Positions 1 to 57,493 of a stretch of DNA of 64,000 nt are shown one piece after another; the stretch's first letter is position 1, and each line of letters opens with the position of its first letter. The notes under the pieces are model-generated. The model was not told the DNA's origin. It saw only the letters and a list, made by a program, of their open reading frames with translations, and made no database searches. The translations under genes and the position numbers were made by a program. The stretch covers positions 4,802 to 68,801 of the forward strand of contig CANRKL010000001.1 of NCBI GenBank assembly GCA_947631205.1, given 5' to 3'. Origin of the DNA: an uncultured Bacilli bacterium. GTDB lineage: Bacteria > Bacillota_I > Bacilli_A > RF39 > UBA660.

Positions 1-1230
1 AAACTAGATGAAACATTAAGTAAACTAAAAGAAGAAGAAAAAACTCTAAGAGAAAGATGGACTTTGGAACAAGAAAATAAACAAGCTATTAATCGTAAGA
101 AAGAAGAATTAGACAAAGCTCGATTCTCATTATCTCAAGCTGAAAATAACTACGATTTAGAAACAGTTGCTCGTCTAAAACATGGAGAAATACCAGCCCT
201 AGAACAAGAATTAAAAGACTTACAAAATAAGATTTCTAATACTATGTTAAAAGATATTGTTGATGAAGAAAGTATAGCTTCAATTATATCTCGTTGGACT
301 AATATACCTATTGCTAAATTAGTAAGTGGTGAAAAAGAAAAACTTTTAAATTTACAAGCAAACTTACAAAAAAGAGTCAAAGGCCAAGATGAAGCACTTC
401 ATTTAGTTAGTGAAGCCATCCTTAGAGCTAGAAGTGGAATAAAAGACCCTAAAAGACCAATTGGCTCATTTATTTTCCTAGGTCCTACTGGTGTAGGTAA
501 AACAGAAGTAGCCAAAAGCCTAGCTTATGAATTATTTGATGATGAAAGACATATTATTAGAATTGATTGTTCAGAATATATGGAAGCCTTTAATGTATCA
601 AGACTTATTGGTTCGCCTCCAGGATATGTTGGATATGATGAGGGTGGTGAATTAACTGAAGCTGTAAGAAGAAACCCTTATAGTATAGTTTTATTTGATG
701 AAATAGAAAAAGCCCACAAAGATGTATTTAATATTCTTTTACAAATATTAGATGATGGACGACTTACTGATAGTCAAGGAAGAACTGTTGATTTTAAAAA
801 TACAATTATAATTATGACAAGTAATTTAGGCAGTGAATACATATTAGATAATGAAAGCAATGCTCATGAATTAGTTATGCAAGAATTAAAATCAGCCTTT
901 CGTCCAGAATTTATCAATCGAATTGATGAAATAATTATTTTTAATTCTTTAAGTAAAGATGTTGTAAAAGATATCTTACAAAAAATAATTACAGAATTAG
1001 AAAGTCGTTTATCTAATATAAATATTAAAATAGAATTAACTAATGAAGCTAAAACAAAAATAATAGATGAATCATATGACCCAAATTATGGAGCAAGGCC
1101 AATAAAAAGATATGTTACTAAAAATATTGAGTCTTTAATAGCCCATGAATTAATAAAAGAAGATATTAAAATGAATACTAAATTATTAATAGATGTTAAA
1201 AATGATAATTTTGTAGTAAATAAAATATAA
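1..1230 (+). CDS. clpB: ClpB-type AAA+ disaggregase, C-terminal part. The gene is cut off at its 5' end by the window edge; the ORF track starts it at 64. It includes the middle-domain coiled coil and the D2 ATPase module.
   Basis: The in-frame translation runs from window start and contains a long coiled-coil M-domain. The Walker A reads GPTGVGKT, Walker B reads VLFDEIEKAH, and the sensor-2/ClpB_D2-small C-terminus is present. These are hallmarks of Hsp100. Confidence 0.85.
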   Translation, partial: KLDETLSKLKEEEKTLRERWTLEQENKQAINRKKEELDKARFSLSQAENNYDLETVARLKHGEIPALEQELKDLQNKISNTMLKDIVDEESIASIISRWTNIPIAKLVSGEKEKLLNLQANLQKRVKGQDEALHLVSEAILRARSGIKDPKRPIGSFIFLGPTGVGKTEVAKSLAYELFDDERHIIRIDCSEYMEAFNVSRLIGSPPGYVGYDEGGELTEAVRRNPYSIVLFDEIEKAHKDVFNILLQILDDGRLTDSQGRTVDFKNTIIIMTSNLGSEYILDNESNAHELVMQELKSAFRPEFINRIDEIIIFNSLSKDVVKDILQKIITELESRLSNINIKIELTNEAKTKIIDESYDPNYGARPIKRYVTKNIESLIAHELIKEDIKMNTKLLIDVKNDNFVVNKI

Positions 1231-1334
1231 AAAATGAATAGAAGTGTAAATTAATAAAAAAAGTTTATGCTTCTTTTCTATTTTGTGTTAAGATGTATAT
1301 AGAAAGTAGGAGATAAAAATGGATAAAAAGACAA

Positions 1335-2933
1335 TTGGGGGGGGGGTTATTAAATAAGAAAATAGTAATCATACTACTAATTCTTACAATAACCATAACA
1401 ATAGGAGGAAGTTATGCCTTTTGGCAAATAACAAAAAGTCAAACAGGAGATAATGTGATAACTTCAGGGTGTGTAGACTTAACTATAGATAATCAAACAA
1501 ATAATATACAACTTAATAATGCTTATCCCACAGAAGATAGTGAAGGACAAAATTTAGACCCATTTATATTTACAGTAACCAATCATTGTAATGTTAAAAT
1601 GGATTATGAGATAGGATTAGAAACGTTAAGTGATACAAATTTAGAAAGTAAATATGTTAAAGTATTAATAAATGAACAAGGAAAAACTGGTAGTTCTAAA
1701 TTATTAAGTACATATGAAAATGAAAGTAAAACTATAATAGATGGAGCTAAAGAAGGAAGAATACTCTTAGAAGGAAAATTAGAACCGACAACAGATAATA
1801 ATAATCCTAGTAAAAAAGATTATGAACTAAGACTATGGTTAGATTATGACGCGGATAAAGGAGCAATGAGTAAAACATTTAGAAGTAAGATAGTATTAAG
1901 TGGAGTAGAAAATACACCCAAACGTTCTGATGAAGTATGTGATACAAATCCTGATAGTGTAGATTGTAAGTTATTAAAAAATGATGATAAAAATGAAGAA
2001 GCTCAATTAGCATATGATGGAACAGAAGAAAATAATTTAAGATATATTGGAGCAACTCCAAATAATTATATTGATATTGGGGATAGGGATTTAGATGGAC
2101 AACCAATCTTATGGCGAATAATAGGAGTTATGAATAATATGACGATTGTAGGTGATGATGATAGTGAAAGTGCATGGCAAAGTTTAGTAAAAATAATCAG
2201 AGCAGATAGCATAGGGAATTGGAGTTGGGACTCATCAGCAAGTGGAGTAAACTATGGATATGGGGTAAACGAATGGAGTGAGTCTGATTTAATGACAACC
2301 TTAAACTCTGGAGCATACTGGAGCAAGACCAGTGGACAATGTTACAGTGGTTCAAATGATAGTCAGAAAGCATGCGATTTTAGTAGTATAGGACTAACTA
2401 AGGAAGTAAGAAACAAAATAGCTAAAGTAAGATGGAATACAGGAACAATGCCAGATGAATATTCAAGTAATACGAGTAAAACAACAGCAAGTTATATGTA
2501 TCAAGGAGAGAGAAGCGATAATCACAGAAAAAAATTTTGCAGTAGTGGAAGTTACTGTAATGACATAGTAGAACGAACATCAACATGGGATGGATATATA
2601 GGACTAATGTATCCATCTGACTATGGATATGCGGTCGGCGGAGAGGTACGAAATAGTTGCTTAGCAAAAACAATGTACAACTGGAATGGAAGTAGTCCAG
2701 ATTGTAAAGGAAATGATTGGTTATTACCAACGTCATCTTATGAATGGACCCTAACTCCTGACCCTGATTCGTCGTATGCTACTTATGTGTTCAATGTGTA
2801 TTCTTCTGGATACTTGAATGAAAGTAATGTTGGACCTACTTATTCCGTTCGTCCTGTCGCTTATCTAACGCCTGGTACACAGATTGTAGTCGGTGAGGGA
2901 ACAAAAGAAAATCCGCATACCTTAAAAGCGTAA
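1335..2933 (+). CDS. TasA/camelysin-like secreted protein, 532 aa, with a SipW-type signal peptide and a ~330-aa Cys-containing C-terminal domain of unknown function. Relative to the RBS-associated ATG at 1319, the reading frame is broken by a poly-G(10) tract.
   Basis: The N-terminus has an n-region, an h-region, then SYAFWQ (compare the TasA signal-peptide motif AxFxD). Next comes VITSGCVDLTID, resembling TasA ASGTLDLSA. It is a paralog of 47926-49524, 16358-16966 and 4509-5072. Confidence 0.6.
   Translation: MGGGLLNKKIVIILLILTITITIGGSYAFWQITKSQTGDNVITSGCVDLTIDNQTNNIQLNNAYPTEDSEGQNLDPFIFTVTNHCNVKMDYEIGLETLSDTNLESKYVKVLINEQGKTGSSKLLSTYENESKTIIDGAKEGRILLEGKLEPTTDNNNPSKKDYELRLWLDYDADKGAMSKTFRSKIVLSGVENTPKRSDEVCDTNPDSVDCKLLKNDDKNEEAQLAYDGTEENNLRYIGATPNNYIDIGDRDLDGQPILWRIIGVMNNMTIVGDDDSESAWQSLVKIIRADSIGNWSWDSSASGVNYGYGVNEWSESDLMTTLNSGAYWSKTSGQCYSGSNDSQKACDFSSIGLTKEVRNKIAKVRWNTGTMPDEYSSNTSKTTASYMYQGERSDNHRKKFCSSGSYCNDIVERTSTWDGYIGLMYPSDYGYAVGGEVRNSCLAKTMYNWNGSSPDCKGNDWLLPTSSYEWTLTPDPDSSYATYVFNVYSSGYLNESNVGPTYSVRPVAYLTPGTQIVVGEGTKENPHTLKA
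1337..1346 (+). repeat. Homopolymeric G(10) tract lying between the RBS-ATG (1319) and the long tasA-like ORF.
   Basis: Counted directly as 10 consecutive G. The ATG at 1319 has an AGGAG RBS 6 nt upstream but, with 10 G, reaches a stop after 12 codons. With 9 or 12 G it reads in frame through the 532-aa ORF. Confidence 0.9.
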
Positions 2934-3078: not shown

Positions 3079-4446
3079 ATGAATATTAAAATGGAAGAAA
3101 TAGTAAATTATTGTAAACAATATGGTTTTATATTTCAAGGAAGTGAAATATATGGTGGACTTTCTAATACATGGGATTATGGACCTTTAGGAAAAGAATT
3201 AAAAGAAAATATTAGAAAATCTTGGTGGAAAAAATTTATTCAAGAAAATCCTTATAATTATGGACTAGACTCAGCTATTCTTATGAATCCAGAAGTTTGG
3301 GTTGCCTCTGGTCATGTTTCAAGTTTTGCTGACCCATTAATAGATTGTAAAAAATGTAAAAGTCGTCATCGAGCTGATAAATTAATTGAAGATAGCATGG
3401 GTATTTCTGCAGATGGGTGGACTAATGAAGAAATAGAAAACTATATTAATGAAAACCAAATTAAATGTCCTATATGTGGTTCAACATCTTTTACAGGAAT
3501 AAGACAATTTAACTTATTATTTGAAACCCATCAAGGTGTTACAGAAGATACAAAAAGCAAAGTTTATTTAAGAGGTGAGACGGCCCAAGGAATATTTGTT
3601 AATTTTTTAAATGTTCAAAGAAGTATGCGTGCTAAAGTTCCTTTTGGAATTGGCCAAACAGGAAAAAGTTTTCGAAATGAAATAACTCCAGGTAATTTTA
3701 TTTTTAGAACAAGAGAATTTGAACAAATGGAATTAGAGTTTTTTTGTAAGCCTAATACTGATTTAGAATGGTTTGGTTATTGGAAAAGTTTTTGCCTTAA
3801 CTTTTTAAAAGATTTAGGAATTAATAAAGATAATTTACGTTTTAGAGACCATCAAAAAGAAGAATTAGCCTTTTATAGTAAAGCTACAACTGATATTGAA
3901 TATTTATATCCAATTGGTTGGGGAGAATTGTGGGGAATAGCTGATAGAACTGACTATGATTTATCTGTTCATGAAAAACATTCTAAACAAGAATTAAAAT
4001 ATTTAGACCCTGAGACTAATGAAAGATATATTCCTTATGTTATTGAGCCTTCTGTAGGATTAGACCGTCTTTTATTATGTGTTTTATGTGACGCCTATAA
4101 AAAAGAAAATATTAACTCGGAAGAAAGATTAGTATTAAAAATTCATCCAGCCCTAGCGCCTTATAAAGTTACAATACTACCATTAGTAAAGAAAATTCAT
4201 AGTAAAAAAGCTAAAGAAATATATGGTGATTTATCTAAATATTTTATGTGTAGTTATGATGAAGCAGGAAGTATTGGTAAAAGATATCGTCGAAGTGATG
4301 CAATTGGAACTCCTTTTGCTATTACAATCGATGATGATACCCTAAATAACAAAACAGTAACAATTAGGTATCGTGATTCCATGGAGCAACAAACAATAGA
4401 TTTAAAAGACTTAAAAGATTTTATTGTCAATAAAACAACATTTTAA
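3079..4446 (+). CDS. glyQS: Glycyl-tRNA synthetase, alpha2 (GlyQS) type.
   Basis: It contains the class II aaRS motifs and the sequence [18 protein letters not shown] typical of dimeric GlyRS. An AGGAAGGA RBS sits 8 nt upstream. Confidence 0.9.
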
Positions 4447-4508
4447 ATTTAAGAGATTGAAATAAGTTAAATAATTTGTTAAAATGGTTATAGAATAGAG
4501 GAATGAAT

Positions 4509-5072
4509 ATGGATAAAAAAATTTTTTGGTCAGTTATTGTTGTAACTGTTAGTGCTTTAGTTATATTACTTTCTTTAACTTATAATACCACTTTTTCTTA
4601 TTTTACAACTACCATTGATACTTCTGGTTATAGTGGTGCTGGTAATGGTAAGACTGGACTTACAGCTGGTGAAATTACTGGAGATGTAGTATTAAGTGGG
4701 AGTACTGATATTTTTGGTGATAAAATATATCCAGGGACTAGCCTAAATTACACTTTTACTATATCAAATCCTAATACAATAGATGTGCCAGTAAATCTAT
4801 ATTGGACTAATGTTACAAATAGTTTTATTAATAAAAATGATTTACAAATAACTTTAAAAGATAGCCATCAAAAAGAAATTATTACAGCAGCGAATAACAA
4901 AACGTTTCCTAAAAGCAATAATGAGGACTTAGTTACGAATTTAGTAGTTCCTAAAGGTGGTTCAACGACATATACATTAACAATAAATTACATAAATACT
5001 AACCAAAATCAATTTGGTGATATGGGTAAAGCATTTAAAGGAACGATAAATATTAAGAGTTATGAAGAATAA
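4509..5072 (+). CDS. Short TasA/camelysin-like secreted protein with a SipW-cognate-type signal peptide.
   Basis: The signal peptide is followed by FSYFTTT (compare TasA A-F-x-D). The segment GDKIYPGTSLNYTFTISNPN resembles TasA PGDKLTKDFQFENNG. Start chosen at the second ATG (4509; the track ORF starts at 4503), which is 7 nt from a GAGG RBS. Confidence 0.6.
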   Translation: MDKKIFWSVIVVTVSALVILLSLTYNTTFSYFTTTIDTSGYSGAGNGKTGLTAGEITGDVVLSGSTDIFGDKIYPGTSLNYTFTISNPNTIDVPVNLYWTNVTNSFINKNDLQITLKDSHQKEIITAANNKTFPKSNNEDLVTNLVVPKGGSTTYTLTINYINTNQNQFGDMGKAFKGTINIKSYEE

Positions 5073-5095
5073 AAGAAAGGTTGATTGGTGATTAG

Positions 5096-7471: not shown

Positions 7472-7547
7472 GTCTCCTTAGCTCAGTTGGTAGAGCAACT
7501 GACTCTTAATCAGTGGGTCTGGGGTTCGAGCCCCCAAGGGGACACCA
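7472..7547 (+). tRNA. tRNA-Lys (anticodon CTT).
   Basis: A 76-nt cloverleaf was folded by hand. It has a 7-bp acceptor stem, a GCTC/GAGC D-stem, an ACTGA/TCAGT anticodon stem with loop CTCTTAA, a GGTTCGAGCCCC T-arm, and an encoded CCA. Confidence 0.85.
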
Positions 7548-16357: not shown

Positions 16358-16966
16358 ATGGAAAAAGAAAATAAATCAAATGAAAGTATTAAAAATGTAA
16401 CCATAGGAATAATTGGAGTCATTGCTTTAGTAATAACAACTGTAGGTATTACTTATGCAGTATGGACATCTAATGCCTCTCAAGTAACTCAAAATGCTAT
16501 TACTGTTGGTTGTGTTAATGTAACCTTAGCTGATGAAAGTGATGACATAACAATTAGTGAAGCTTATCCTATTAGTGATGGACAAGGAAAACAGCTTAAG
16601 CCTTACAAATTTACTGTAAAAAATAATTGTAAGTTTAGTGCAACTTATAAAGTAACCTTAGAAAAGTTAAGTGGTTCAAATTTAGACCCAAAATATGTAA
16701 AAGTCTTATTAAGTAATCAAGGGGAAGCAACAACTAATTTAGAAGCCAAAGCATTAATAACTTCGAATTATCCATCATCAGAGCCATATGTTACCGCTGG
16801 AGCCACAGCTGGTTTTCAGTTATTAACAAATCAAACATTAGAAGCAAGTGCTACCAAAGCTTATGATTTACGTTTATGGCTTGATACTTCTGCTCCATCA
16901 TCAATTGGTAATCAAGTATTTAATTCTAAAATTGTTGTTAAAGCTGTCCCAACTAATCAAAAATAA
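16358..16966 (+). CDS. Short TasA/camelysin-like secreted protein with a SipW-cognate-type signal peptide.
   Basis: The TM is followed by TYAVWTSNAS, then ITVGCVNVTL, AYPISDGQGKQLKP and YDLRLWLD. These motifs are shared with the other three paralogs. Confidence 0.6.
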   Translation: MEKENKSNESIKNVTIGIIGVIALVITTVGITYAVWTSNASQVTQNAITVGCVNVTLADESDDITISEAYPISDGQGKQLKPYKFTVKNNCKFSATYKVTLEKLSGSNLDPKYVKVLLSNQGEATTNLEAKALITSNYPSSEPYVTAGATAGFQLLTNQTLEASATKAYDLRLWLDTSAPSSIGNQVFNSKIVVKAVPTNQK

Positions 16967-17644: not shown

Positions 17645-17887
17645 GTGAATCTTTATCAAACTATGCAAAAATTTTTATTAGATAAAAATTATTATTTAGA
17701 TATATGGGATACTTATATTCATGTCTATAATTTTATTGATATTGAAACATTAAATGAAAAATTAATTGTTCTAAATATGGAAAATTTTAAATTAGAAATA
17801 ACAGGTGAAGATTTTCGTGTTTTAAAACTAACTAAAAAAGAAATTTTAATTGAAGGCATCTTAAACAATGTGAGGATAAATAGATGA
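17645..17887 (+). CDS. yqfC: Sporulation protein YqfC.
   Basis: The LEITGEDFRVLKLTKKEILIEGILNNVRI pattern matches the YqfC family, and the yqfC-yqfD synteny is preserved. Confidence 0.7.
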   Translation: MNLYQTMQKFLLDKNYYLDIWDTYIHVYNFIDIETLNEKLIVLNMENFKLEITGEDFRVLKLTKKEILIEGILNNVRINR

Positions 17888-19002
17888 ATTATTTATGGTT
17901 AAAAATTAATAAAAAGTATAAAAATCGTCTCTTAATTAAATGTTATAAGAAAAAAATTACAGTATATGATACCAAAGAAGATAATAGTTTTATATATCTT
18001 AAAATTAGTAGTGAGGACTATAAAACATTTCAAAAATCAATAATATTTAAATACCAAGTTATTGGAGGGTGTGGTCCTAATAAAATTAAAAGTATTTTAA
18101 AAAAATACCATATCTTTTTCTTTTCTCTAATAGTTGTTTTCATTATTTTCTTTTTTCTTACCCATATAATGACTAAAGTAATTGTTATTCATTCTAATAA
18201 AGAAATAAGAGAACTAGTTACAAAATCTTTAAAAGAAAAAGGAATTAAAGAAAATAGTTTTAAAAAAAGCTATCAAGAAATTCAAAAAATTAAAGAAGAA
18301 ATATTAAATCTTTATCCAACTAAACTTGAATGGTTAGAAATAGAAGTAAAAGGAATGAATTATATTGTACGAGTAGAAGAAAGAAAAATAAAAGAAGAAG
18401 AAGTAGAAAAAGATAGATGTAATATAATTGCTACCAAAGATGCCATAATAAAAAAAATAATTTATTCAAAAGGAGAAGCTATTGTTGAAGCTAATGATTA
18501 TGTTAAAAAAGGTGATATTTTAATATCTGGAGTTTTAAAAAAAGATGAAGAAGAAAAAGGAGTAGTATGCGCAAGTGGAAAAGTATTAGGAGAAGTTTGG
18601 TATAAAATAACTTTAAATATTCCTAAAGTAAAAGAAATAACAGAACCTACTGGTAAAAAAAGATGGAATTTAAAACTTAGCAATAATACATATAATGATT
18701 TAATATTTAAAAGTAGACTAGATAATTATCAAACAGAAGAACACCATTTATTTACTCTATTTGGAAGTACTTTATCTTTTGTAGTCCAAAAAGAAATTAC
18801 AAAAAAAACAGTTACACTTTCTAATGAAGAATTAAAACAAATTGCCGAAGATGAAATTAAAGATAAACTAAATATTAAAGATGATGAAGATAAAGAAATA
18901 ATTGATAAAAAAATTTTAACTGAAGAAATTAATGATGATAATTTAACTATGGAGTTTTTTGTGGTCGTCTTAGAAAAAATTAGTCAAAGTATTGAATTTT
19001 AA
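17884..19002 (+). CDS. yqfD: Sporulation protein YqfD-like (stage IV).
   Basis: It has the expected size and a single TM near residues 75-95. It is translationally coupled after yqfC and lies in the yqfCD-ybeY-era-recO synteny. Confidence 0.6.
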   Translation: MNYLWLKINKKYKNRLLIKCYKKKITVYDTKEDNSFIYLKISSEDYKTFQKSIIFKYQVIGGCGPNKIKSILKKYHIFFFSLIVVFIIFFFLTHIMTKVIVIHSNKEIRELVTKSLKEKGIKENSFKKSYQEIQKIKEEILNLYPTKLEWLEIEVKGMNYIVRVEERKIKEEEVEKDRCNIIATKDAIIKKIIYSKGEAIVEANDYVKKGDILISGVLKKDEEEKGVVCASGKVLGEVWYKITLNIPKVKEITEPTGKKRWNLKLSNNTYNDLIFKSRLDNYQTEEHHLFTLFGSTLSFVVQKEITKKTVTLSNEELKQIAEDEIKDKLNIKDDEDKEIIDKKILTEEINDDNLTMEFFVVVLEKISQSIEF

Positions 19003-44521: not shown

Positions 44522-45430
44522 TTATTTTTCCTCCTTTTTTTGGGCTCTAGGATGGGTATTTAAATATTCATCATGTGTGTGTTCACTAGATAAATGAGTA
44601 TAAATTTGAGTTGTTGCAATATCACTATGACCTAGTAATTCTTGAATAATTCGTAAATCTGCACCATTTTGTAATAAATGAGTAGCAAAAGAATGTCTTA
44701 AAGTGTGAGGTGAGATATTTTTCTTGATTGAAGCTTTTTGACACAAAGATTTAAGAATTTTAAAAAAACCTTGTCTTGTAATAACTAACCCTCGATTATT
44801 CAAAAAAATATTATCCGTATTCTTACCTTTTTTTATTAATAATGGACGATACTTATCCATATATAAACTTAAATATTTCTTACTTGTTTCATTTATTGGA
44901 ACTATTCTTTCTTTAGACCCCTTCCCTAAAATTCTTATTGAATCATTTTTAAAATCAATATTATTAAATTTTAAATTAATTAACTCACTAACCCGAAGAC
45001 CGCTTCCATACATTAATTCTAACATAGCCTTTGTCCTAAAATCATAAGGTGTATTTAAAGGAATATTAAGAAGCCTATCAGTTTCTTCATAAGTTAAAAC
45101 TTCAGGTAATTTTTTATTAACTTTTGGTAATAAAATATTCTCACAAGGATTTTTAGTAATATAATCTTCTTTTAAACAAAAATGATAAAAACTATTAATT
45201 ACTGTTAAATAATGTGACCTAGTATTAGATGTTAGTTCTAAGTTATCTAAATTTTCTAAAAATTTTTTAATATCATCTTCTCTTAATTCTAATAAGTTTT
45301 TTTTAGAAAAGTAGCTCTCAAAAACATCTAATTCTTTAGCATAAGAAATTAAAGTATTTTCACTTAGTTTTTTAGCATATTTTAAGTATTCTATATATTC
45401 AGTTACTTTACTATTCACTACTATCACCAT
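44522..45430 (-). CDS. xerD: XerC/XerD-type tyrosine site-specific recombinase.
   Basis: The R..HxxR..Y catalytic signature is present (LRHSFATHLL...LGHSDIATTQIYTHL). The size of 302 aa is typical of Xer. A dif site lies 2 kb away. The XerC-versus-XerD assignment is not resolved. Confidence 0.75.
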   Translation of the reverse strand: MVIVVNSKVTEYIEYLKYAKKLSENTLISYAKELDVFESYFSKKNLLELREDDIKKFLENLDNLELTSNTRSHYLTVINSFYHFCLKEDYITKNPCENILLPKVNKKLPEVLTYEETDRLLNIPLNTPYDFRTKAMLELMYGSGLRVSELINLKFNNIDFKNDSIRILGKGSKERIVPINETSKKYLSLYMDKYRPLLIKKGKNTDNIFLNNRGLVITRQGFFKILKSLCQKASIKKNISPHTLRHSFATHLLQNGADLRIIQELLGHSDIATTQIYTHLSSEHTHDEYLNTHPRAQKKEEK

Positions 45431-47825: not shown

Positions 47826-47874
47826 AGATACCTACTCTTTCTATAAATATTCTAGCTTATATGCAAGTTACGTA

Positions 47875-47903
47875 TTGACATATATGCGTAATGCGTATAA
47901 AAT
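47875..47903 (+). promoter_or_regulatory. Promoter of the tasA-like gene with an embedded tandem ATGCGTA repeat (candidate operator).
   Basis: The -35 is TTGACA (47875-47880) and the -10 is TATAAA/TAAAAT. ATGCGTAATGCGTA lies in the spacer. Palindromic TACGTA lies just upstream. Confidence 0.4.
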
Positions 47904-47925
47904 AAATTAGAAGATAGGTGAAAAT

Positions 47926-49524
47926 ATGAAAAGTAAAAGAAATATAATAATTGTTTTAGTCTTAAGTTTAATAAGCATAATTACAATAGGAATAAGTTAT
48001 GCCTTTTGGCAAGTGACAAAAACTCAGATAGAAGAAAATGTTATAACAACAGGGTGTGTTGATGTAAAAATAGAAAATGAATTAAATCAAATAAATTTAG
48101 GAGAAGCCTATCCTATAGAAGACAGTGATGGATTAGAATTAAAACCATTTACATTTACCATTACTAATAAATGTAATGTATATACTGATTATGAGATAGG
48201 ATTAGAAATGTTAAGTAATACAAATTTAGAAAGTAAATATGTTAAAGTATTAATAAATCAAGTGGGTATAAAAAAGTCACCTAAATTACTCAGTAATTAC
48301 GAAAATGAAAGTAAAACCATAATAGATGGAGCTAAAGAAGGAAGAATACTCTTAAAAGGAAAATTAGACCCAACAACAGATGATAATAAACCTAGTAAAA
48401 AAGATTATGAATTAAGATTATGGTTAGATAATGATTCCCCAAAGTCAATAATGAATCAAACATTTACAAGTAAGATAGTAATTAATGGAAGTCAAGGAAG
48501 TGAACCAAAACCATCATATGAAATATGTAATCAAAATGAAGAAAGCGCGTCTTGCACAATTGCAAAACTAGCAGATGAAGATACAACTAATTTAATTTAT
48601 GATGATACAGATGACAAAAATTTAAGATATATAGGAAAAGAAGTAAATAATTATATTGATATAGGAGATAGAGATTCTGATAATAAACCAATCTTATGGC
48701 AAATTATCGGAATTATGAATAATGTATTAGTAGTCGATGATGAGAATAATGAACATCAAGAAAGTTTAGTAAAAATAATTAGAGCAGAAGATATAGGAAT
48801 ATTAAGCTGGGACACTTCAGCAAATGAAGTAAACGATGGACGTGGTGTAAATGAGTGGAGCGAGGCTGATATAATGTCCAACTTAAATAATGGAGCATAC
48901 TGGAACAAGAAAAGTGGACAATGTTACAATGGTTACAACGATGCTAAAGTAACATGTGATTTTAGTAGTACAGGACTAACTCCTACCGTCAAAGAAAATA
49001 TTGCTAAAGTAAGATGGAATACTGGGACTTTTGAATCATACGATACATCAGAGTGGTTAGCAAATGCGACATACAAAGCCGAACGAAGTGAAAATATTGG
49101 AAAAATATGTAACGGTGGAAACGATTGTAACGATAAAGTAGAAAGGCATACAACCTGGGATGGTTATATAGGACTTATGTATCCATCTGATTATATGTAT
49201 GCCGTTGGAGGTGATGTCCGAAATAATTGTTTAACAACAAGTATGGCCAACTGGAATAATAGCAATCCCAATTGTAAAGGTAATGATTGGTTATATATTT
49301 CTGAAAAAATACTATGGACCATGACTCCTGTTCCTAATTCATCATATGCTTATTATGTGTTCTTTGTCATGCCAGAAGGGCATGTGCTAAGTGGTAGTGC
49401 TCTTGCTGCCCGTGGTATTCGTCCAACCGCCTATTTAAAAGAAAATCTTAAAATTGCCGATAATCCTAATCCAGACAAAACATATGGTTCTAAAGAAAAT
49501 CCATTTCAACTAAAAAACAATTAA
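47926..49524 (+). CDS. TasA/camelysin-like secreted protein, 532 aa, paralog of 1335-2933.
   Basis: The signal peptide is followed by SYAFWQVTKTQ, VITTGCVDVKIEN and YELRLWLD. The C-terminal domain is shared with paralog 1, including TWDGYIGLMYPSDYMYAVGGDVRNNC...CKGNDWL...GIRPTAYL. Confidence 0.65.
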   Translation: MKSKRNIIIVLVLSLISIITIGISYAFWQVTKTQIEENVITTGCVDVKIENELNQINLGEAYPIEDSDGLELKPFTFTITNKCNVYTDYEIGLEMLSNTNLESKYVKVLINQVGIKKSPKLLSNYENESKTIIDGAKEGRILLKGKLDPTTDDNKPSKKDYELRLWLDNDSPKSIMNQTFTSKIVINGSQGSEPKPSYEICNQNEESASCTIAKLADEDTTNLIYDDTDDKNLRYIGKEVNNYIDIGDRDSDNKPILWQIIGIMNNVLVVDDENNEHQESLVKIIRAEDIGILSWDTSANEVNDGRGVNEWSEADIMSNLNNGAYWNKKSGQCYNGYNDAKVTCDFSSTGLTPTVKENIAKVRWNTGTFESYDTSEWLANATYKAERSENIGKICNGGNDCNDKVERHTTWDGYIGLMYPSDYMYAVGGDVRNNCLTTSMANWNNSNPNCKGNDWLYISEKILWTMTPVPNSSYAYYVFFVMPEGHVLSGSALAARGIRPTAYLKENLKIADNPNPDKTYGSKENPFQLKNN

Positions 49525-53058: not shown

Positions 53059-54333
53059 TTAAATTTTAAATTCAAAGATATACCCACTTATTTCTATTTC
53101 ATCATTTTCTTTTGCCCCTAATCTAATCAGTTCATCTTCAATTCCCATACCTCTTAATTTTCTTGCAAATCTTTGAACTGCTTCTTCTTGATTAAATCTT
53201 GTCATAGCAAAAAGTTTTTCTACTTCTTCTCCTTTTATTACCCATACACCATCTTCCTTTGTTATTGTGTATGGTTTTTCATTTTTAAAACGGTAAACAA
53301 TTGTACTTTCATAAAGTGATTCAGGATAAATACTCTCATCTTTAATTGTTTCTAATGTATCTTTTAAATAAACTAAAAGCTCATCTAATCCTTGCTTAGT
53401 AACTGCTGATACTAAAAATATTTCTTTATCTGGATATTTCTTTTTAAAATTTTTTAAATTTTCTTTAGAGTTTGGTAAGTCCATTTTATTAGCTACAATT
53501 ATTTCTTTTTTATTAGCTAATTCATCACTATAAGCAACTATTTCTTTTCTAATTATTTCATAGTCTTCAATTGGATTTCTTCCCTCACTTGCTGACATAT
53601 CAATCACATGAGCAAGTATTTTTGTCCTAGAAGCATGTTTTAAAAATTTATCTCCTAGTCCAACACCTAAAGAAGCCCCTTCAATCATTCCTGGTAAATC
53701 TGCTAAAATGAAAGTCCTTTTATCTTTTAAAGTTATTACTCCTAAATTAGGTGATAAAGTTGTAAAGTGATAAGCCCCAATTTTTGGATTAGATGCTGAT
53801 ACAGCTGCTAAAATAGAAGATTTACCAACACTTGGCATTCCTACTAATCCCACATCAGCTAAAAGCTTTAATTCACACTTAATATACCTAACTTCACCAG
53901 GTTCACCTAATTCAGATATTGTTGGAGCAGGCTTCTCTAAAGTAGCAAAAGCAGCATTTCCTCTTCCCCCTCTTCCACCATGAGCCACAATAGCTTCTTC
54001 CTTATCTTTAGTTAAATCGGCAATTACAAGACCCGTATCATCATCAAATATAGTTGTCCCACAAGGAACTTTTATAATTGTATCACTAGCATTGGCACCC
54101 CGACATTTTTTACCACTGCCATTTGTTCCTTTTAAAGCTTTAATAATCTTACTATATTTTAAATCAATTAAAGTAGTTAAGCCTTTATCAGCTACAAAGA
54201 TAATATCTCCGCCTTTTCCTCCAGACCCCCCATCAGGTCCTCCCATTGGAACATATTTTTCCCTTCGAAAAGAACTACAACCATCTCCCCCTTTACCAGC
54301 AATTAACTTTAATTTAACCTCATCTATAAACAT
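53059..54333 (-). CDS. obg: GTPase Obg.
   Basis: It has the Obg fold N-terminus with glycine-rich repeats, G1 GMPSVGKSS, and a C-terminal OCT domain. Confidence 0.95.
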   Translation of the reverse strand: MFIDEVKLKLIAGKGGDGCSSFRREKYVPMGGPDGGSGGKGGDIIFVADKGLTTLIDLKYSKIIKALKGTNGSGKKCRGANASDTIIKVPCGTTIFDDDTGLVIADLTKDKEEAIVAHGGRGGRGNAAFATLEKPAPTISELGEPGEVRYIKCELKLLADVGLVGMPSVGKSSILAAVSASNPKIGAYHFTTLSPNLGVITLKDKRTFILADLPGMIEGASLGVGLGDKFLKHASRTKILAHVIDMSASEGRNPIEDYEIIRKEIVAYSDELANKKEIIVANKMDLPNSKENLKNFKKKYPDKEIFLVSAVTKQGLDELLVYLKDTLETIKDESIYPESLYESTIVYRFKNEKPYTITKEDGVWVIKGEEVEKLFAMTRFNQEEAVQRFARKLRGMGIEDELIRLGAKENDEIEISGYIFEFKI

Positions 54334-57383: not shown

Positions 57384-57493
57384 TTCTTACCTCCTTTATT
57401 ATTTTAAGACGCGCCTAAAAGGTAACTTCTAAAAGTATTTAATAACCTTGTTCGAGCGGTTTTATAAAAGCTAAATATTTATAAAACATTTAA

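Follow-up and report, generated by a model that had tools for sequence, protein, structure and literature searches.

A run of ten G in the 5' coding region of a gene for a predicted secreted protein is probably (with a probability of about two in three) a translational phase switch that works by slipped-strand mispairing; the gene would belong to a multigene family whose secreted products have a TasA-like N-terminal domain and a lectin-like C-terminal domain. For the copy in the window (the whole 64 kb stretch of DNA analysed), the best reading is that it is OFF or expressed at a low level. The original prediction had left the choice between a phase switch and a homopolymer error, and the comparative data support the switch, since tracts of nine and ten G (G9 and G10) coexist in single samples, the G10 genes retain intact, constrained reading frames, and the tract itself is kept.

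The G10 tract and its reading frames

Direct reading of the sequence gave exactly ten G at positions 1337-1346. This is the only G/C homopolymer of at least 7 nt in the window, the runner-up being a C6 at 54226-54231, and at a window GC content of 26.1% the expected number of runs of ten or more G is between about 1e-4 (iid model) and 5e-4 (first-order Markov model). The original prediction was thus right both in calling such runs very rare and in finding no other one here.

The frame that opens at ATG 1319 reads ATG GAT AAA AAG ACA ATT before the run, GGG GGG GGG across it and GTT ATT AAA TAA after it, which gives the product MDKKTIGGGVIK* with its stop at 1355-1357. The long ORF lies in the +1 frame relative to this ATG. 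Counting from the stop at 1314-1316, past which that frame opens, the earliest canonical start is TTG 1335; its upstream 20 nt contain no GGAG-like motif, and it lies 22 nt from the AGGAG. When the tract length was changed in silico, G9 and G12 joined ATG 1319 to the ORF (537 and 538 aa, respectively, starting MDKKTIGGG(G)LLNKK...), and G8, G10 and G11 gave peptides of only 10-12 aa; the same frame logic holds at three homologous loci (L006, L007 and L008). The position of the ATG 6 nt 3' of the AGGAG, the frame break caused by exactly ten G and its repair by nine or twelve had all been proposed beforehand and were reproduced.

The further claim that the ORF could begin solely at a TTG lacking a Shine-Dalgarno (SD) sequence stood only in part: there is indeed no SD at TTG 1335, but a second in-frame start, GTG 1455, follows an AGGAG located 5 nt upstream (1445-1449). 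The database gene call P0001 (492 aa) starts at this GTG, its product would have no signal peptide, and the call is probably a gene-caller artefact that results from the frame break. For the AGGAG in front of ATG 1319, the motif alone is not proof of a start, because 12 of the 22 AGGAG-N4-9-ATG motifs in the window open ORFs of at least 80 aa.

Concerning other signals, a promoter and terminator scan of 1150-1500 returned no + strand promoter and no terminator, and Rfam gave no match near the locus, with a tRNA and an L21 leader found elsewhere only. The block TTGTG(T/G)TA(A/T)GATGTA.ATA..AGAAAG precedes the SD in the window and in L007, and it is near-identical in L008, L009, L010 and L012 and more divergent in L006 (TGaTAGAAT). 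Its conservation is consistent with a promoter just upstream of the SD; the candidate -10 element listed in Table 1 remains unconfirmed, as the consensus scan gave no + strand -35/-10 pair. RNA folding around the tract found no significant structure: no fold forms in the RNA 5' of the run (MFE 0 kcal/mol), and the hairpin 3' of it has a z of -1.66, with 13 of 200 shuffles folding equally well. A G-quadruplex was rejected because a single G run is unable to form one. A non-slippery recoding of the tract that keeps the same +1 frame is GGAGGTGGCG.

Table 1. Features of the locus, with positions in the window
Feature	Position	Strand	Basis and remarks
Candidate extended -10 element TGtTAAGAT	1286..1294	+	inferred; 13 nt 5' of SD
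Shine-Dalgarno AGGAG	1308..1312	+	direct read; 6 nt 5' of ATG 1319; kept in L006 and L007
Leader frame from ATG 1319	1319..1357	+	in the G10 state ends after 12 codons (MDKKTIGGGVIK*)
G10 homopolymer, proposed switch element	1337..1346	+	G9/G12 in frame; G8/G10/G11 truncated
Main ORF, 532 codons from TTG 1335, predicted secreted two-domain protein	1335..2933	+	homologues, AlphaFold model
Signal-peptide coding region (LLNKKIVIILLILTITITIGGSYA)	1347..1418	+	3' of the tract; model helix, weak Pfam match
Internal AGGAG-N5-GTG	1445..1457	+	start of public gene call P0001
Predicted N-terminal beta-sandwich domain, TasA-like, ~residues 37-195	1443..1919	+	
C-terminal Cys-rich domain, resembles the Thomasclavelia ramosa IgA peptidase N-terminal (expanded C-type-lectin-like) domain	1992..2930	+	
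Tract-free paralogue, 59-60% aa identity	47926..49524	+	5' cassette unlike that of the window gene: TTGACA-N17-TATAAA promoter, MKSKRN... start

Homologous tracts in sister genes

Nine tract-region sequences were compared. They come from three metagenome samples, with the ENA analyses ERZ27249118, ERZ27249329 and ERZ27249603, and cover seven homologous loci besides that of the window. The related DNA consists of low-coverage SPAdes-style contigs (k-mer coverage about 4-6), apparently all from one ENA study. The sequences fall into two gene families that have a common C-terminal domain and different N-terminal architectures. Six loci carry G10 and are out of frame (the window, L006, L007, L008, L010 and L012), one locus, found in two samples (L009 and L014), carries G9 and is in frame and full length, and L011 has an interrupted tract, GGTGGGGGA, that is also in frame. 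Neither G8 nor G11 occurs among the eight uninterrupted tracts read.

In family 1, to which the window gene belongs, L006 (sample ERZ27249118) and L007 (ERZ27249329) have different genomic surroundings, and each shows the AGGAG, a leader that opens with ATG, a G10 tract and the +1 offset seen in the window. Their leader equivalents are MK(MK)DKKTIGGGVIK* and ...KKVLGGGVIK*, and between these and the window leader there is an indel of 3 nt (one codon) that preserves the ATG frame. G10 was therefore found in all three family-1 loci read as DNA, and P0003 and P0005 would also be G10, judging from their gene-call starts (MGGGLL...). The original prediction had named a 10-G tract fixed in all reads and all related strains, with the protein expressed from TTG 1335, as one outcome that would speak against a switch, and the uniform G10 of family 1 comes close to this unless TTG 1335 is unused.

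In family 2 the tract lies inside the signal peptide. L008, L010 and L012 have G10 and a premature stop. With G10 a family-2 gene has no usable start 5' of the signal peptide, and in L008 the main frame shows TAA and TAG immediately 5' of the run; the G9 allele of L009 and L014 encodes the full-length 457-aa protein P0036. Furthermore, 25 of the 29 proteins in the family-2 homologue list were called from an internal Met just past the signal peptide, which reads as the signature of a broken upstream frame. The excess of G10 over G9 is 6 loci to 1 by DNA and about 26 to 1 by family-2 gene calls.

Both lengths coexist within single samples, in ERZ27249329 (G9 in L009; G10 in L007, L008 and L012) and in ERZ27249118 (G9 in L014; G10 in L006), and a systematic sequencing artefact is unlikely for this reason. 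The comparison of tract length across relatives, which had been suggested as a check, hence bore out a difference between paralogous loci (G9 or G10), but showed no variation at the window locus or in its closest relatives. Length polymorphism was not found at any single locus, and the G9 locus stays G9 in both samples.

Other routes to additional alleles were followed. The G9 and G12 products of the six G10 loci had no exact match among about 15 billion proteins, a weak negative given that the organism is rare there, and none of ten hypothetical products, either ON-state or begun at the TTG, turned up in the protein collection by exact look-up. Scans of JGI metagenomes with the tract and its 3' flank (one per family) and of viral contigs for the tract gave no match, and exact look-ups of P0001, P0002 and P0003 (NCBI-derived orthologues) returned no contigs on record. 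The product of the neighbouring glyS gene was located on four ENA contigs, all of which end inside the tasA-like gene before the tract. On the 5' side of the locus, the search through ClpB reached a best homologue 77% identical and no usable contigs, and a GTDB genome scan with the full protein, in a collection where the species is apparently missing or masked, gave a single relative at 30% identity.

Selection on the tract and on the genes behind it

The ORFs behind every G10 tract are uninterrupted for 415-528 codons, and their pairwise dN/dS ranges from 0.26 to 0.46. Between L006 and L007, both G10, dS is 0.19 and dN/dS 0.30, with no stops. By these values, purifying selection acts on the G10 genes, which are intact.

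Regarding the tract, GGG accounts for only 8.6% of the Gly codons, so the chance of an all-GGG Gly-Gly-Gly is about 6e-4; the tract is therefore kept in spite of codon bias. Mixed codons are used at the remaining five Gly-Gly-Gly sites of the window's long ORFs, and the tract is perfect at seven loci despite diverged flanks. Over the 90 nt 3' of the tract the window is 94-98% identical to L006 and L007, and over the next 90 nt 66-68%. The 5' cassette (SD, leader, tract and signal peptide) is far better conserved than the gene bodies.

The encoded protein

The AlphaFold model of the main ORF product has a mean pLDDT of 82.6, and its residues 6-23 form a helix whose low pLDDT is what a signal or transmembrane segment would be expected to show. 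By analogy with TasA, cleavage is predicted after SYA. The Pfam profile PF12389 (Peptidase_M73) matched residues 12-66 only, with 15.1 bits (E = 0.022) against a curated cutoff of 22.5, which is below the score for membership of the TasA/camelysin family. NCBIfam gave no match for this product, and in sequence searches of the PDB neither the family profile nor the C-terminal domain had a true match to any chain. Compared with TasA/camelysin (PF12389; fibre PDB 8AUR), the window protein differs not only in its sub-cutoff score but also in an additional domain of about 310 aa at its C terminus and in its surroundings, where no signal-peptidase domain and no sipW-like gene was found in the 20 neighbouring ORFs scanned.

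The C-terminal domain resembles the N-terminal domain of the T. ramosa IgA peptidase (PDB 9QA6; PMC12237041), the only solved relative of this lectin-like domain, although no match was obtained at the sequence level and the window protein does not have the M64 catalytic domain. That N-terminal domain has no known function, and cleavage by the peptidase proceeds without it (PMC12237041). Peptidase activity was rejected for the window protein because it has no HExxH motif, and the catalytic HExxHxxxGxxD metzincin domain that marks M64 IgA peptidases is likewise absent. The protein may be surface-exposed or adhesive.

Proposed mechanism

In the mechanism proposed, transcription would start just 5' of the leader, and AGGAG/ATG 1319 would be the site where ribosomes load. 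A tract of 9 (or 12) G would let them read MDKKTIGGG-LLNKK... through the signal peptide into the secreted TasA-like and lectin-like protein; with the 10 G of the assembly they would stop after 12 codons, and the gene would be OFF or at most weakly expressed. Slippage during replication would gain or lose one G and so flip the state in a heritable and reversible way, and this switching may occur on short time scales at the window locus. The window gene would be a member of a multigene set with two N-terminal architectures and a common C-terminal domain, each member with its own tract in the signal-peptide region, and in any population most copies would be OFF and one or few ON. Host antibody or phage, for example, may select for most copies being OFF.

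On the other hand, the G10 skew goes beyond that of textbook contingency loci, and it needs either selection for the OFF state or some expression in the G10 state. G10 could be leaky, through initiation at TTG 1335 or through transcriptional or ribosomal slippage. An unlikely extension of this idea is that selection keeps the whole family in G10 as its resting state, from which a low, fixed amount of protein is made because RNA polymerase slips, because ribosomes slip by +1, or because they re-initiate at the TTG that adjoins the run. If this were true, every copy would deliver a constitutive trickle, with rare heritable jumps to G9 and high expression, which would amount to a graded two-layer control of the secreted TasA-like/lectin-like repertoire in an uncultured gut-type Firmicute.

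Alternative explanations

A sequencing or assembly error, with a true tract of G9 and a gene that is simply intact, is suggested by the error-prone nature of homopolymers and by the low k-mer coverage of the contigs from which the relatives come. Nevertheless, G10 was read at six independently assembled loci from three samples and the window, the same samples give G9 elsewhere in a manner reproducible across two samples, and errors would scatter the lengths instead of tracking locus identity, all of which makes an error very improbable. The gene could also be a dead pseudogene, permanently inactivated by the additional G and with a tract of no regulatory role, as it is out of frame in the assembly and the protein collection contains no ON form of exactly this gene. 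This is hardly credible for a gene with no second lesion in 528 codons, whose single-lesion state is identical at five other loci; L006 and L007, moreover, have diverged to the dS given above with both still G10 and free of stops, and the tract and its 5' cassette are the best-conserved parts of these genes.

Two further explanations grant G10 a function. G10 might be a fixed state with constitutive synthesis of the protein from TTG 1335 (MGGGLLNKK...), in which the ATG 1319 frame is a 12-codon upstream ORF that might feed the TTG by termination and re-initiation, TAA 1355 being 20 nt 3' of it. The G10 of the three family-1 loci and of the two deduced from gene calls would agree with this, as would purifying selection on ORFs in the G10 state and the family-1 TTG, which abuts the run although the preceding 6 nt vary (ACAATTG vs GTGCTTG). 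The TTG product also retains a complete signal peptide (NKK n-region and hydrophobic core), because the family-1 tract lies upstream of the h-region. However, use of this start is improbable when it has no SD within 20 nt, and three plain glycines would not keep a perfect GGG-GGG-GGG at the GGG usage observed. In addition, the whole-codon indel between the window leader and those of L006 and L007 fits coding in the ATG frame, and G10 in family 2 leaves no start 5' of the signal peptide, where G9 yields the full-length protein. Non-standard decoding would set a low full-length level per G10 copy with no DNA change, either by RNA polymerase slipping to G9 transcripts or by ribosomes shifting +1 on GGG_GGG_GGG_G, where the GGG_G permits perfect re-pairing of the P-site tRNA after the shift and the first G's could take the role that the SD-like stimulator has in prfB. 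This would account for the heavy bias towards G10 over G9, the lack of G8 and G11 among the eight uninterrupted tracts and the purifying selection on G10 genes. Against it, the features of a prfB-type +1 frameshift were not found at the tract, which has no separate SD-like element and no significant RNA structure (neither upstream nor in the downstream hairpin), and the shift site has no stop or rare codon, the stop coming three codons later. RNA polymerase slips efficiently on A/T runs, but much less readily on G/C runs. As G9 and interrupted in-frame alleles exist, frameshifting is not required for expression, and this type of decoding seems a rather poor candidate too.

Significance

Homopolymer contingency loci are textbook knowledge in Campylobacter, Neisseria, Haemophilus and Helicobacter, and recent work has added Bifidobacterium and Gardnerella. 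For uncultured low-GC Bacillota that are known from metagenomes only, they have hardly been documented. Under the phase-switch reading, following up the one G run of the window uncovers an entire family of secreted proteins, in which every copy has its own tract and most are probably OFF. Gene callers systematically mis-start or truncate the tract genes, as in P0001 and most family-2 calls, and the family is under-represented in catalogues because of these mis-started genes and because assemblies break inside them. If switching were confirmed, the tracts would be easy markers of ON/OFF selection on surface antigens in metagenomic reads, host IgA and phage being the candidate selective agents.

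Comparison with known systems

The opa genes of Neisseria carry CTCTT pentamer repeats in the signal-peptide coding region and form a multigene set of surface adhesins, in which the translation of each copy is switched independently and the majority are OFF at any given moment. The family described here shares with them a repeat in each copy within the leader-peptide coding sequence, and a conserved 5' region followed by variable bodies; under the proposed mechanism it would also share the independent switching and the OFF majority. In contrast, the repeat is here a mononucleotide G run, the host is Gram-positive and the proteins are unrelated.

Poly-G/C contingency loci are also found in the AT-rich genomes of Campylobacter jejuni, Helicobacter and Haemophilus. 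A poly-C tract has been described in nanH3 of Gardnerella (bioRxiv 10.1101/2020.09.16.300947). All these loci have in common with the present one a G/C run of 8-11 nt in the 5' coding region of genes for surface or secreted products, where a one-base change toggles between full-length and truncated protein. They differ in that length variation was measured there within populations, whereas here lengths were compared between loci, and the skew towards OFF is stronger here than usually reported.

The sortase-dependent pilus genes of Bifidobacterium breve UCC2003 (bbr_0113a/b and bbr_1889a/b) contain an intragenic G-tract subject to replication slippage; they are OFF in the reference genome and turn ON upon slippage (PMC9187656). 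There, a short upstream ORF supplies the promoter and the SD, and a G tract separates it from a long ORF that lacks an SD of its own (PMC9187656). The window shows the same arrangement, with a putative promoter, and both cases concern a Gram-positive commensal, surface products, tracts in related genes and a gene that is OFF as sequenced, which in the window remains the preferred reading. B. breve is, however, a high-GC actinobacterium, and in the low-GC (26%) Bacillota host studied here the tract stands out far more from its background. The product also differs, with predicted TasA-like and lectin-like domains instead of an LPXTG pilin, and the tract, which is carried by many paralogues, is located either ahead of the signal peptide or within it.

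Tract and reading frames

The G+C content of the window is 26.1%, and apart from the tract of exactly ten G no G or C run within its 64 kb reaches a length of 7, the second longest being C6 (54226-54231). The expected count of G runs of at least 10 in the window lies between 1e-4 (independent bases) and 5e-4 (first-order Markov), which agrees with the original prediction that the tract is unique and that long G/C runs are rare at this base composition. The short frame that it described behind an AGGAG was also recovered: the frame of ATG 1319 encodes MDKKTIGGGVIK and ends at TAA 1355-1357. The tasA-like ORF lies in the +1 frame, which opens only at 1317, and TTG 1335 is its earliest canonical start. 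The claim that this RBS-less TTG is the sole possible start holds in part, as no GGAG-like motif is present in the 20 nt preceding it, but GTG 1455, with its own AGGAG, had been overlooked. In silico, G9 or G12 restored the frame from ATG 1319, as anticipated (537 or 538 aa), and G8 and G11 caused the same truncation as G10.

The public call of the window gene, P0001 (492 aa, 100% identical), lacks a signal peptide because it starts at GTG 1455. The homologous proteins P0002 and P0004 are cut short at the same GTG, and in all three cases the gene callers were probably misled by the frame break.

Coordinates and layout of the features in the window and at related loci (L006-L014, metagenome loci; positions in the respective contig)
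Feature	Position	Strand	Remarks
AGGAG	1308-1312	+	Six bases 5' of ATG 1319
Long ORF, 532 codons	1335-2933	+	+1 frame relative to ATG 1319
G10 homopolymer	1337-1346	+	Read in sequence
Internal AGGAG-N5-GTG (GTG 1455)	1445-1457	+	In frame with the long ORF, inside the coding sequence
tRNA	7472-7544
Tract-less paralogue	47926-49524		59-60% aa identity
Ribosomal protein L21 leader	57397-57471	-	Rfam RF00559, 51 bits
L006, family 1 (sample ERZ27249118, protein P0241)			AGGAG; ATG leader MKDKKTIGGGVIK, then stop; exactly G10; main ORF at +1
L007, family 1 (sample ERZ27249329, protein P0242)			Layout as L006; leader MKDKKVLGGGVIK, then stop
L008, family 2 (P0012)	211-220		G10; premature stop from ATG
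L010, family 2 (P0016)	1102-1111		G10; premature stop from ATG
L012, family 2 (P0029)	3937-3946		G10; premature stop from ATG
L009, family 2 (P0036)	5082-5090		G9; 457-aa protein in frame from ATG
L014, family 2 (orthologous to L009, other sample)	23-31		G9; in frame from ATG
L011, family 2 (P0039)	146-154		Interrupted tract GGTGGGGGA; in frame from ATG

Tract states among relatives

The host is an uncultured low-GC Bacillota. Relatives of its ClpB carry the names Firmicutes/Bacillota, and the YqfD stage-IV sporulation protein encoded at 17884-19002 places it among the spore-former-derived Bacillota. The species was not found in GTDB representatives, JGI metagenomes or viral contigs. Four independent ENA contigs with identical glyS (L001-L004) all stop within the tasA-like gene, at distances of 30 to 395 codons from the 3' end of the gene. 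This is presumably due to the repetition of its N-terminal part among paralogues, which breaks the assembly graph; the tract region of the window locus is thus missing from those assemblies.

Concerning family 1, which has the TasA-like N-domain, P0003 and P0005 are 71% and 68% identical overall to the window protein and nearly identical at the N-terminus. Both begin MGGGLLNKK..., that is, TTG and then nine G's, the G10 state of the window, and the start MDKKTIGGGLLNKK appears in none of the closest database proteins. L006, L007 (both cluster members taken from ENA) and the window each have a different genomic neighbourhood. G10 was found at every family 1 locus where the tract is readable.

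Many matches in the homologue list span just the C-terminal 58% of the query, starting MEGTV.YEGSGD.... The full-length proteins of family 2 start MRIDKFKEKNNKK...AGGGYLINKSYA; they have the C-terminal domain in common with family 1, a different N-terminal part (MRIDKFKEK...) and a G tract of their own within the signal peptide. Since the hydrophobic core lies upstream of the tract, G10 in this family is not rescuable by a nearby start, and at L008 two stops, TAA and TAG, interrupt the main frame directly 5' of the run. Among the 29 family 2 proteins listed, 25 are mis-called from an internal Met, three have GGG in frame (one at a G10 locus through an alternative GTG start, one with G9 and one with an interrupted tract) and one lacks the motif. 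Next to these loci, mutS (L012 1255-3798) lies directly upstream of one G10 gene and a DDE transposase (L014 2943-4382) adjoins the G9 locus, both probably by coincidence.

Overall, the uninterrupted tracts read in DNA are G10 at six loci, the window's included, and G9 at one locus in two samples, a large excess of G10, with neither G8 nor G11 among them. The DNA of the relatives apparently derives from a single ENA study. The comparison of tract lengths across relatives thus revealed G9 versus G10 between sister loci, but no family 1 or family 2 locus in two states.

Probable selection on the tract and possible exchange of 5' regions

GGG is the rarest Gly codon (8.6%), the chance of an all-GGG Gly-Gly-Gly is ~6e-4, and at the other five such sites, within long ORFs of the window, different Gly codons are combined. 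Seven loci have a perfect tract despite diverged flanks; between L006 and L007, five of the six bases just 5' of it differ. Identity between the window and L006/L007 is 94-98% in the first 90 nt 3' of the tract and 66-68% in the following 90 nt.

The tract-less paralogue has a body of the L006/L007 type, and its DNA is essentially identical to that type starting at the region where the signal peptide is cleaved. Its 5' region (47860-47925) carries a canonical TTGACA-N17-TATAAA promoter, and promoter, SD and N-terminus (MKSKRN...) are completely different from those of the tract-bearing genes. The arrangement resembles a replacement of one paralogue's 5' expression cassette by that of another, and such a body behind different 5' elements suggests that these cassettes are exchanged or homogenised between paralogues. 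A tyrosine recombinase (Phage_integrase and SAM-like N-domain; 44522-45430, minus strand) is encoded 2.5 kb upstream of the paralogue and may simply be XerC/D.

The encoded protein

Pfam found no more than a Peptidase_M73 (camelysin/TasA) match below threshold, covering residues 12-66, and NCBIfam found none. The label "tasA-like" is fair for the predicted fold but not for family membership. The C-terminal domain resembles the N-terminal domain of the Thomasclavelia ramosa IgA peptidase. According to PMC12237041, the latter is not needed for catalysis and has an expanded C-type-lectin-like fold with 8Q4E as a relative, and the identity of the common domain follows from that description. The window protein has no HExxH motif and no PDB relative at sequence level. 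We infer a secreted protein combining a TasA-like, possibly fibre-forming, module with a lectin-like binding module.

Two small ORFs with TasA-type signal peptides, 4503-5072 (189 aa) and 16358-16966 (202 aa), look like N-domain-only relatives; the latter is 35-40% identical to the family's N-terminal domain (tblastn), and neither has a tract or a Pfam match. Searching with a profile built from 83 alignment columns of repaired N-termini gave 0 matches and missed even P0003, P0005 and P0241 (~70 identical residues); this was put down to how the search tool handles low-complexity signal peptides and not to biology.

Interpretation of the tract

The most economical account is that slipped-strand mispairing on the G run would change its length, G9 or G12 turning translation from ATG 1319 ON and G10 turning it OFF, across a multigene family with most copies OFF. 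The comparison of tracts in relatives supports this phase-variation reading, already put forward in the original prediction, with a probability of about 0.65. The homopolymer error offered there as the other option, with G9 as the true tract, is unlikely because G9 and G10 coexist within single samples: ERZ27249329 holds G9 (L009) together with G10 (L007, L008, L012), and ERZ27249118 holds G9 (L014) with G10 (L006). Decay into dead pseudogenes is also unlikely, since all G10 genes are open over 415-528 codons, their pairwise dN/dS is low (0.26-0.46, not above comparisons with G9 or tract-less copies) and L006 and L007, both G10, show no lesions (dS 0.19, dN/dS 0.30).

On the other hand, G10 could be leaky in family 1. 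Initiation at TTG 1335, to which ribosomes that terminate at TAA 1355 may contribute, would give a product with its signal peptide intact. The frame could also be restored by transcriptional slippage to G9 or by a +1 ribosomal shift on GGG_G; however, no stimulatory signals for either were found (upstream of the run the RNA lacks structure, and the hairpin downstream of it does not reach significance), and frameshifting is not required because in-frame alleles exist.

Comparison with known systems

Read as a phase-variation switch, the G10 tract is a further case of a well-known type. Its interest is moderate and lies in bringing to light an entire family of genes for putative surface proteins, gated by such tracts and mishandled by gene callers and assemblers alike. 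As in the Neisseria opa genes, where every member of an adhesin family has a repeat in its leader-peptide region, the repeat is placed in that region of each family member. Gardnerella nanH3 offers a poly-C example in a 5' region. The Bifidobacterium breve pilus genes, in which replication slippage has been demonstrated, present the same layout of a short SD-led upstream ORF, a G tract and an SD-less long ORF, with the reference OFF (PMC9187656).
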